Assembly: GCF_003334385.1 (NCBI RefSeq)
Contig: NZ_QOWN01000006.1
Source: Escherichia coli
GTDB taxonomy: Bacteria; Pseudomonadota; Gammaproteobacteria; Enterobacterales; Enterobacteriaceae
DNA length: 64,000 bases
Strand: one strand, 5' to 3'
Part shown: positions 63,748 through 64,000 of the stretch, one piece after another
Position numbering within the stretch: position 1 is the stretch's first letter
Layout: every line of letters starts with the position of its first letter
Program-made: the position numbers and the translations under genes
The notes under the pieces: generated by a model
Seen by the model: the letters and a program-made list of their open reading frames with translations, nothing else
What the model was told of the DNA's origin: nothing
Database searches by the model: none

Positions 63748-63757
63748 TTATTGTAAA

Positions 63758-63783
63758 AGGGATACCGAAAAGGTATCCCTTTT
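63758..63783 (+). terminator. Intrinsic terminator after fyuA
   Basis: agggatacc-gaaaa-ggtatccct hairpin followed by ttt, 10 bp past the fyuA stop. Confidence 0.55.
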
Positions 63784-64000
63784 ACACCACTAGTTAAAAC
63801 CAGTAACTCAGCAGAGTCGCAAAAAATATTAATCCATAGTGATTATTTAAACAATGAAATTGCGATTAGGATAAATAGATTTAACTTTCTCGTTCCTTTC
63901 TCTCCTTATACTAAAGAAATAATCATATCAAAATAAAAATTCACAACAGTGCAACATTAAAAAATACAACCAACAAACAATCCTATATACAAGGCACATC

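Follow-up and report, generated by a model that had tools for sequence, protein, structure and literature searches.

The HPI of Yersinia pestis and Y. pseudotuberculosis is mobile. It carries 17-bp repeats on both sides, and its excision needs Int and Hef. The Escherichia coli island studied here resembles it in its ybt core, its integration at an asn-tRNA gene and its 17-bp att core, whereas the right repeat and hef, both retained in Yersinia, are very probably missing.

For the HPI and ICEKp1, excision of asn-tRNA islands of this family requires attL, attR, an integrase and a recombination directionality factor (PMC2801613, PMC2606025). The ICE-type elements, ICEEc1 of E. coli ECOR31 and ICEKp1 of Klebsiella pneumoniae, keep an excisionase, virB type IV secretion genes, mobBC, cargo genes and the right 17-bp repeat, all of which are lost from the type of island described below. 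They share with it the same int, the ybt core, fyuA, the 17-bp attO and, at 99% identity, the first ~1 kb past fyuA. The ECOR31 element has ~30-35 kb of extra DNA and sits at asnV (PMC2606025), while the ICE-type reference used below is at asnT. The deletion that characterizes the common (“normal”) type of HPI, and its immobilizing effect, were described by Schubert et al. (2009; PLoS Pathog 5:e1000257, PMC2606025), who also argued, and showed experimentally, that the HPI spreads by homologous recombination of large flanking fragments. The common type combines insertion at asnT, an int-ybt-fyuA core and the lack of a repeat on the fyuA side, three features also found in our sequence, with one unique deletion that also removes adjacent chromosome and leaves the island fixed, as in the closest relatives of our sequence (PMC2606025). 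Finally, Paauw et al. (2010; PMC2801613) reported four isolates with intB “bp 124-470 deleted”. The deletion, its interpretation and the int lesion are therefore all already known, and the present finding helps to annotate the locus rather than being a discovery. What is added here is the base-level position of the breakpoint, an in-frame fusion of an ICE ORF to yeeJ with 1-nt microhomology, and counts of the truncated and ICE-type arrangements in complete genomes.

The window, that is, the whole 64,000-nucleotide stretch of E. coli DNA analysed, very probably ends inside the right-hand remnant of a common-type HPI, an asnT-integrated ICE whose right part was deleted once. Nothing essential distinguishes it from the common type (PMC2606025), the junction itself lying outside the window. 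asnT (tRNA-Asn GTT, 33572-33647, plus strand, ARAGORN) is the integration site, between mtfA/serU and the island. This asn-tRNA copy has mtfA and serU (32491-32580, minus strand) on one side and int on the other, as in the common type; the order serU-mtfA-asnT is that of K-12 and of strain 4/2-1. The int-ybt-fyuA core of the common type is present as ORFs from 33809 to 63747. It begins with an integrase (intB) pseudogene (33809-34724, plus strand). The yersiniabactin core follows (34918-61595), with ybtS-X-Q-P on the minus strand and ybtA, irp2, irp1, ybtU, ybtT and ybtE on the plus strand, assigned from ORFs and the RefSeq annotation of near-identical DNA. The last intact gene of the island is fyuA (61726-63747, plus strand), which encodes the yersiniabactin outer-membrane receptor; the ORF agrees with the RefSeq fyuA of an identical stretch, and many E. 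coli chromosomes contain annotated fyuA DNA that matches positions 63000-64000 at 100% identity. The remaining 253 bp (63748-64000, plus strand), hereafter the tail, are the start of a ~1004-bp AT-rich remnant of ICE backbone, as judged from identity to both common-type and ICE-type genomes.

Among 5426 complete E. coli genomes, the best match to positions 22000-46000 is 99.2% identical over 24 kb, against ~99.9% for the HPI part, so that the flank upstream of asnT represents a lineage or mosaic absent from this collection. Between zinT and serU (~31806-32040), yodB (cytochrome b561) is absent, and ~220 bp of unrelated DNA stand where K-12 has ~1.0 kb of other sequence; no yodB is annotated at this place in strain 4/2-1 either.

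The left 17-bp attachment repeat (attL core, or attO), CCAGTCAGAGGAGCCAA, occupies the tRNA-Asn 3' end (33632-33648, plus strand) and is identical to the attO given in Table 1 of Paauw et al. (2010; PMC2801613). Allowing up to three mismatches, it occurs only once in the 64-kb window. The original prediction, that no such repeat is found in the 250 bp after fyuA and that the DNA there is AT-rich, is confirmed. On either strand of 63748-64000, the closest approach to the 17-mer has 7 mismatches out of 17, and the GC content of these 253 bp is 29.6%, as compared with 59% in the ybt core and 49.7% in the upstream chromosome. When the 1004-bp remnant is shuffled, the best match most often has 7 mismatches as well; the match in the tail is thus at chance level. 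Indeed, the 17-mer is expected by chance to be missing from 253 bp, and its absence becomes informative only through other genomes. A right copy located 27-35 kb further on would fall outside the window, which holds the left attO copy only.

Three complete genomes have tails identical to that of the window: ATCC 11775 (L001), strain 4/2-1 (L007) and strain Ec-2939 (L009). In these common-type genomes, no 17-mer is found between fyuA and asnW, so that the search for a copy a few kb downstream, proposed at the outset and run in these relatives, returns none within 9 kb. The lack of a right repeat that marks the common type is therefore seen in the window's tail and in all three relatives up to asnW. 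The next exact 17-mers past fyuA belong to two native tRNA genes: asnW, 9.4 kb away, has an inverted copy at its 3' end, and asnU, 11.3 kb away, a direct copy at its own. K-12 has these copies too.

In the same three genomes, the AT-rich stretch after fyuA is 1004 bp long, has a GC content of 33.2% and is followed by yeeJ. The HPI-free order in K-12 is mtfA-asnT-(369 bp)-yeeJ. Comparison with this HPI-free asnT locus, which had been suggested as a check, places the right junction at yeeJ nt 219: by protein comparison and DNA alignment, K-12 homology starts only at L001 13752, which corresponds to that nucleotide. With window position x equal to L001 x-50999, the junction between ICE remnant and yeeJ maps, in each close relative examined, to window-equivalent position 64751, about 751 bp after the window stops. 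An eroded right border and a border beyond the window had been offered as alternatives; both hold, as the repeat is lost by deletion and the junction is ~751 bp past the window end in close relatives. A megablast search of L001 12749-14300 against the 5426 complete E. coli genomes gave matches over the whole query, hence the same junction, in 2046 of them. In HPI-negative genomes the match begins at query position 1004, and a minority of genomes match the remnant and then diverge.

At the breakpoint, the ICE reads ...GATACCCCCCTG|ATAGGC, K-12 yeeJ reads ...GGTGGCTGAG|TTACGC and the common type reads ...GATACCCCCCTGTTACGC. The microhomology at the junction is a single nucleotide (G) and there is no IS remnant, which suggests that the junction arose by illegitimate recombination. 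The event fused codon 118 of an ICE ORF in frame to codon 74 of yeeJ. The resulting chimeric ORF (L001 13399-14148, ~window-equivalent 64398-65147, outside the window) contains residues 1-118 of an ICE hypothetical protein and YeeJ from residue 74 onwards. It is annotated in RefSeq as “inverse autotransporter beta domain-containing protein”, and residues 118-226 alone match inverse-autotransporter families. The ORF has neither the N-terminus of YeeJ nor its promoter. Its frame is shifted in strain 4/2-1 by one additional A in the A-run near the start, a disruption that suggests a decaying pseudogene. In common-type HPI genomes, the rest of yeeJ is a ~2.1-kb frameshifted remnant with Ig-like domains (L001 14075-16206; L007 4036-6166), as compared with 7.0 kb in K-12. 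Martinez-Gil et al. (2017; PMC5595812) noted that yeeJ adjoins asnT and that HPI insertion may account for its frequent truncation.

As ICE-type reference we used strain Ec-050-T5-MAC (NZ_CP086500.1, ~1965946-2024204; segments L003, L004 and L008), whose complete HPI occupies asnT. Its 420-aa int is intact, a 17-bp repeat is present on either side, and the yeeJ 5' end has been kept whole. Past fyuA, it has in order a 308-aa hypothetical ORF, alpA, DUF2857, traR/dksA, a complete set of virB-type type IV secretion genes (virB2-11), a coupling protein, mobC, ardC and a restriction-modification cluster. At its right end, an exact 17-mer (L004 20947-20963, minus strand) is followed by K-12-like intergenic DNA and the intact yeeJ 5' end. 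This is exactly what one would expect of the progenitor of the common type. AlpA of this element matches excisionase families (phrog_2790, E = 1.3e-14), and the 308-aa ORF, which is the one cut by the deletion, has no family in NCBIfam or PHROGs. Up to L003 21224, the common-type remnant and this ICE share 99% identity, leaving aside an indel of ~220 bp. The indel (L003 ~20297-20516 vs L001 ~13045) falls beyond the window; the short A-rich/CCC motifs on its two sides, AAAAAAACAACCC and AAAAAAAACCACCCC, resemble each other, which suggests a slippage deletion.

Measured against NZ_CP086500.1, ~27.1 kb are missing from the common type, a figure that depends on one present-day ICE as reference, as ICE cargo varies. 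Among the losses are the AlpA/Hef-like excisionase and the transfer genes, both virB type IV secretion and mobBC. The right 17-bp repeat is gone too, as are 587 bp of chromosome made up of the asnT-yeeJ spacer and yeeJ nt 1-218. We infer a single event: one old deletion would have run from codon 118 of the first ICE ORF past fyuA to yeeJ nt 218, and would have taken with it the excisionase, the virB-type secretion genes, mobBC, the cargo genes, attR and the 587 bp of chromosome.

The assignment of the window to the truncated type makes use of its own tail. The 253 bp match common-type genomes at 100% identity and the DNA next to fyuA in ICE-type HPIs at 99%, and two sites separate three common-type from four ICE-type genomes: position 63872 (T vs C) and an A-run near 63959 (A6 vs A5). 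The window has the common-type state, T and A6, at both. Moreover, its closest relatives, Ec-2939 and 4/2-1, have the same int deletion and the common junction, and no ICE transfer module. From these relatives and the two diagnostic sites, the window's own genome is expected to carry the ICE-remnant::yeeJ junction.

Could the window instead belong to a genome with a complete, ICEEc1-like HPI, in which the right repeat is intact ~27-35 kb beyond the window and nothing is eroded? Such an arrangement does exist, since the ICE-specific segment is present in 175 of the 5426 complete E. coli genomes, in some of them at asnT, and since the first ~250 bp past fyuA are 99% identical between the types, the tail by itself barely separates them. 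The state of both diagnostic sites argues against this reading, as does the deletion of int nt 124-470, because three int-deleted relatives (4/2-1 and Ec-2939, which were read, and another that was listed) are all truncated at the junction. The common type also outnumbers the ICE type by ~12 to 1 in complete E. coli genomes. A complete ICE in this genome, whose excisionase, virB and mobBC module would begin over 1 kb past the window end, is thus very unlikely. The two readings differ in what they predict past the window: ...GATACCCCCCTG|TTACGCAAACTCAACC... at ~751 bp for the common type, and ...CCCCCCTGATAGGCTATGAA... followed by alpA for the ICE type.

Two further readings were considered. 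The exact 17-mers at asnU (direct, 11.3 kb away) and asnW might be taken for an intact but displaced right border, the island then including yeeJ' through yeeO, and composite excisions between attO sites are on record in Enterobacter hormaechei (PMC2801613). However, asnW and asnU are genuine tRNA-Asn genes, the order yeeJ-yeeL-shiA-amn-yeeN-asnW-yeeO-asnU is the same in HPI-negative K-12 and in the ICE-type strain, and the latter has its own attR upstream of yeeJ, the intervening genes being core chromosome. A displaced border is hardly credible on this gene order, and we rejected asnW and asnU in this role as native tRNA genes. One might also suppose that no deletion took place and that what separates fyuA from yeeJ is a divergent allele of the asnT-yeeJ spacer, in an E. 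coli island that never had a right repeat; yeeJ is indeed polymorphic and often truncated in E. coli (PMC5595812). Yet the ~1-kb remnant is 99% identical to ICE DNA and to no K-12 sequence, HPI-negative genomes match from position 1004 on only, and the ICE-type strain keeps a K-12-like spacer and the yeeJ 5' end right after attR. Allelic divergence of the spacer is next to impossible given this identity to ICE DNA, and it was rejected.

The integrase at the left end is also damaged. Alignment to int of strain MS10711, which is intact (420 aa), reveals a clean deletion of L005 1033-1379 between window positions 33931 and 33932. This confirms that the integrase is broken, as had been proposed: 347 bp (int nt 124-470) are deleted, nt 1-123 are kept and the frame is shifted after codon 41. 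The functional 420-aa IntB of ICE-type HPIs is therefore absent from the window. The lesion is the same 347-bp deletion as in the intB allele of Paauw et al. (2010; PMC2801613), with no difference detected, and the equivalent int of strain 4/2-1 is annotated as “frameshifted”. The int nt 124-470 segment is found in 1985 genomes and the left end of the island in 2252; hence, about one in ten HPI-positive complete E. coli genomes is without the segment, a value obtained by subtraction in which other int lesions are also counted.

With only attL left of the parts needed for excision, this island is expected to be fixed, because attR and the excisionase are lost and, in this strain, Int is destroyed as well. 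Without attR and the excisionase, Int-mediated excision would be impossible, even before the nt 124-470 deletion is considered, and any movement of the island would be passive, through homologous recombination of large flanking fragments. This loss of mobility, inferred from the missing parts and supported by the literature (PMC2606025), is in line with the earlier proposal that a lost right border and a broken integrase together fix the island. It accounts for the stable presence of the yersiniabactin island in the chromosome of about 40% of sequenced E. coli (2046 truncated vs 175 ICE-type arrangements in 5426 complete genomes) and for its spread with flanking DNA instead of by excision; both points go back to papers of 2004-2009. 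A site-specific route is conceivable, if very doubtful. Were IntB and an excisionase supplied in trans, for example from an ICE-type HPI in the same cell or from a related island at an asn-tRNA gene, attL at asnT might recombine with the 17-mer of asnU and release a ~41-kb composite circle containing the HPI and yeeJ' through yeeO. By analogy, the composite excisions of E. hormaechei involve distant attO sites (PMC2801613). If real, such asnT-asnU excision would offer an escape to an otherwise “fixed” island.

The start of the tail contains a hairpin with a perfect 15-bp stem just past the fyuA stop codon (63752-63786, plus strand; -24.1 kcal/mol, z = -7.1), which is probably the fyuA transcription terminator. 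A simple consensus terminator scan did not call it, because the T-run lies inside the stem. Scanning genome contigs with a 33-mer of this hairpin gave no match. A contig scan with the wobble-degenerate last 14 codons of fyuA retrieved loci from three species only, Salmonella diarizonae, Klebsiella oxytoca and K. michiganensis; neither Yersinia nor K. pneumoniae was among them. In these three species, the DNA past the fyuA stop is unrelated to the E. coli tail, except for an analogous GC-rich hairpin in the corresponding position; as it diverges right after the stop, it is uninformative on the tail. Finally, in several human isolates an IS1A element is inserted in the equivalent of positions 63000-64000, where fyuA ends or immediately downstream (e.g., NZ_CP082083.1 2138084-2139860).
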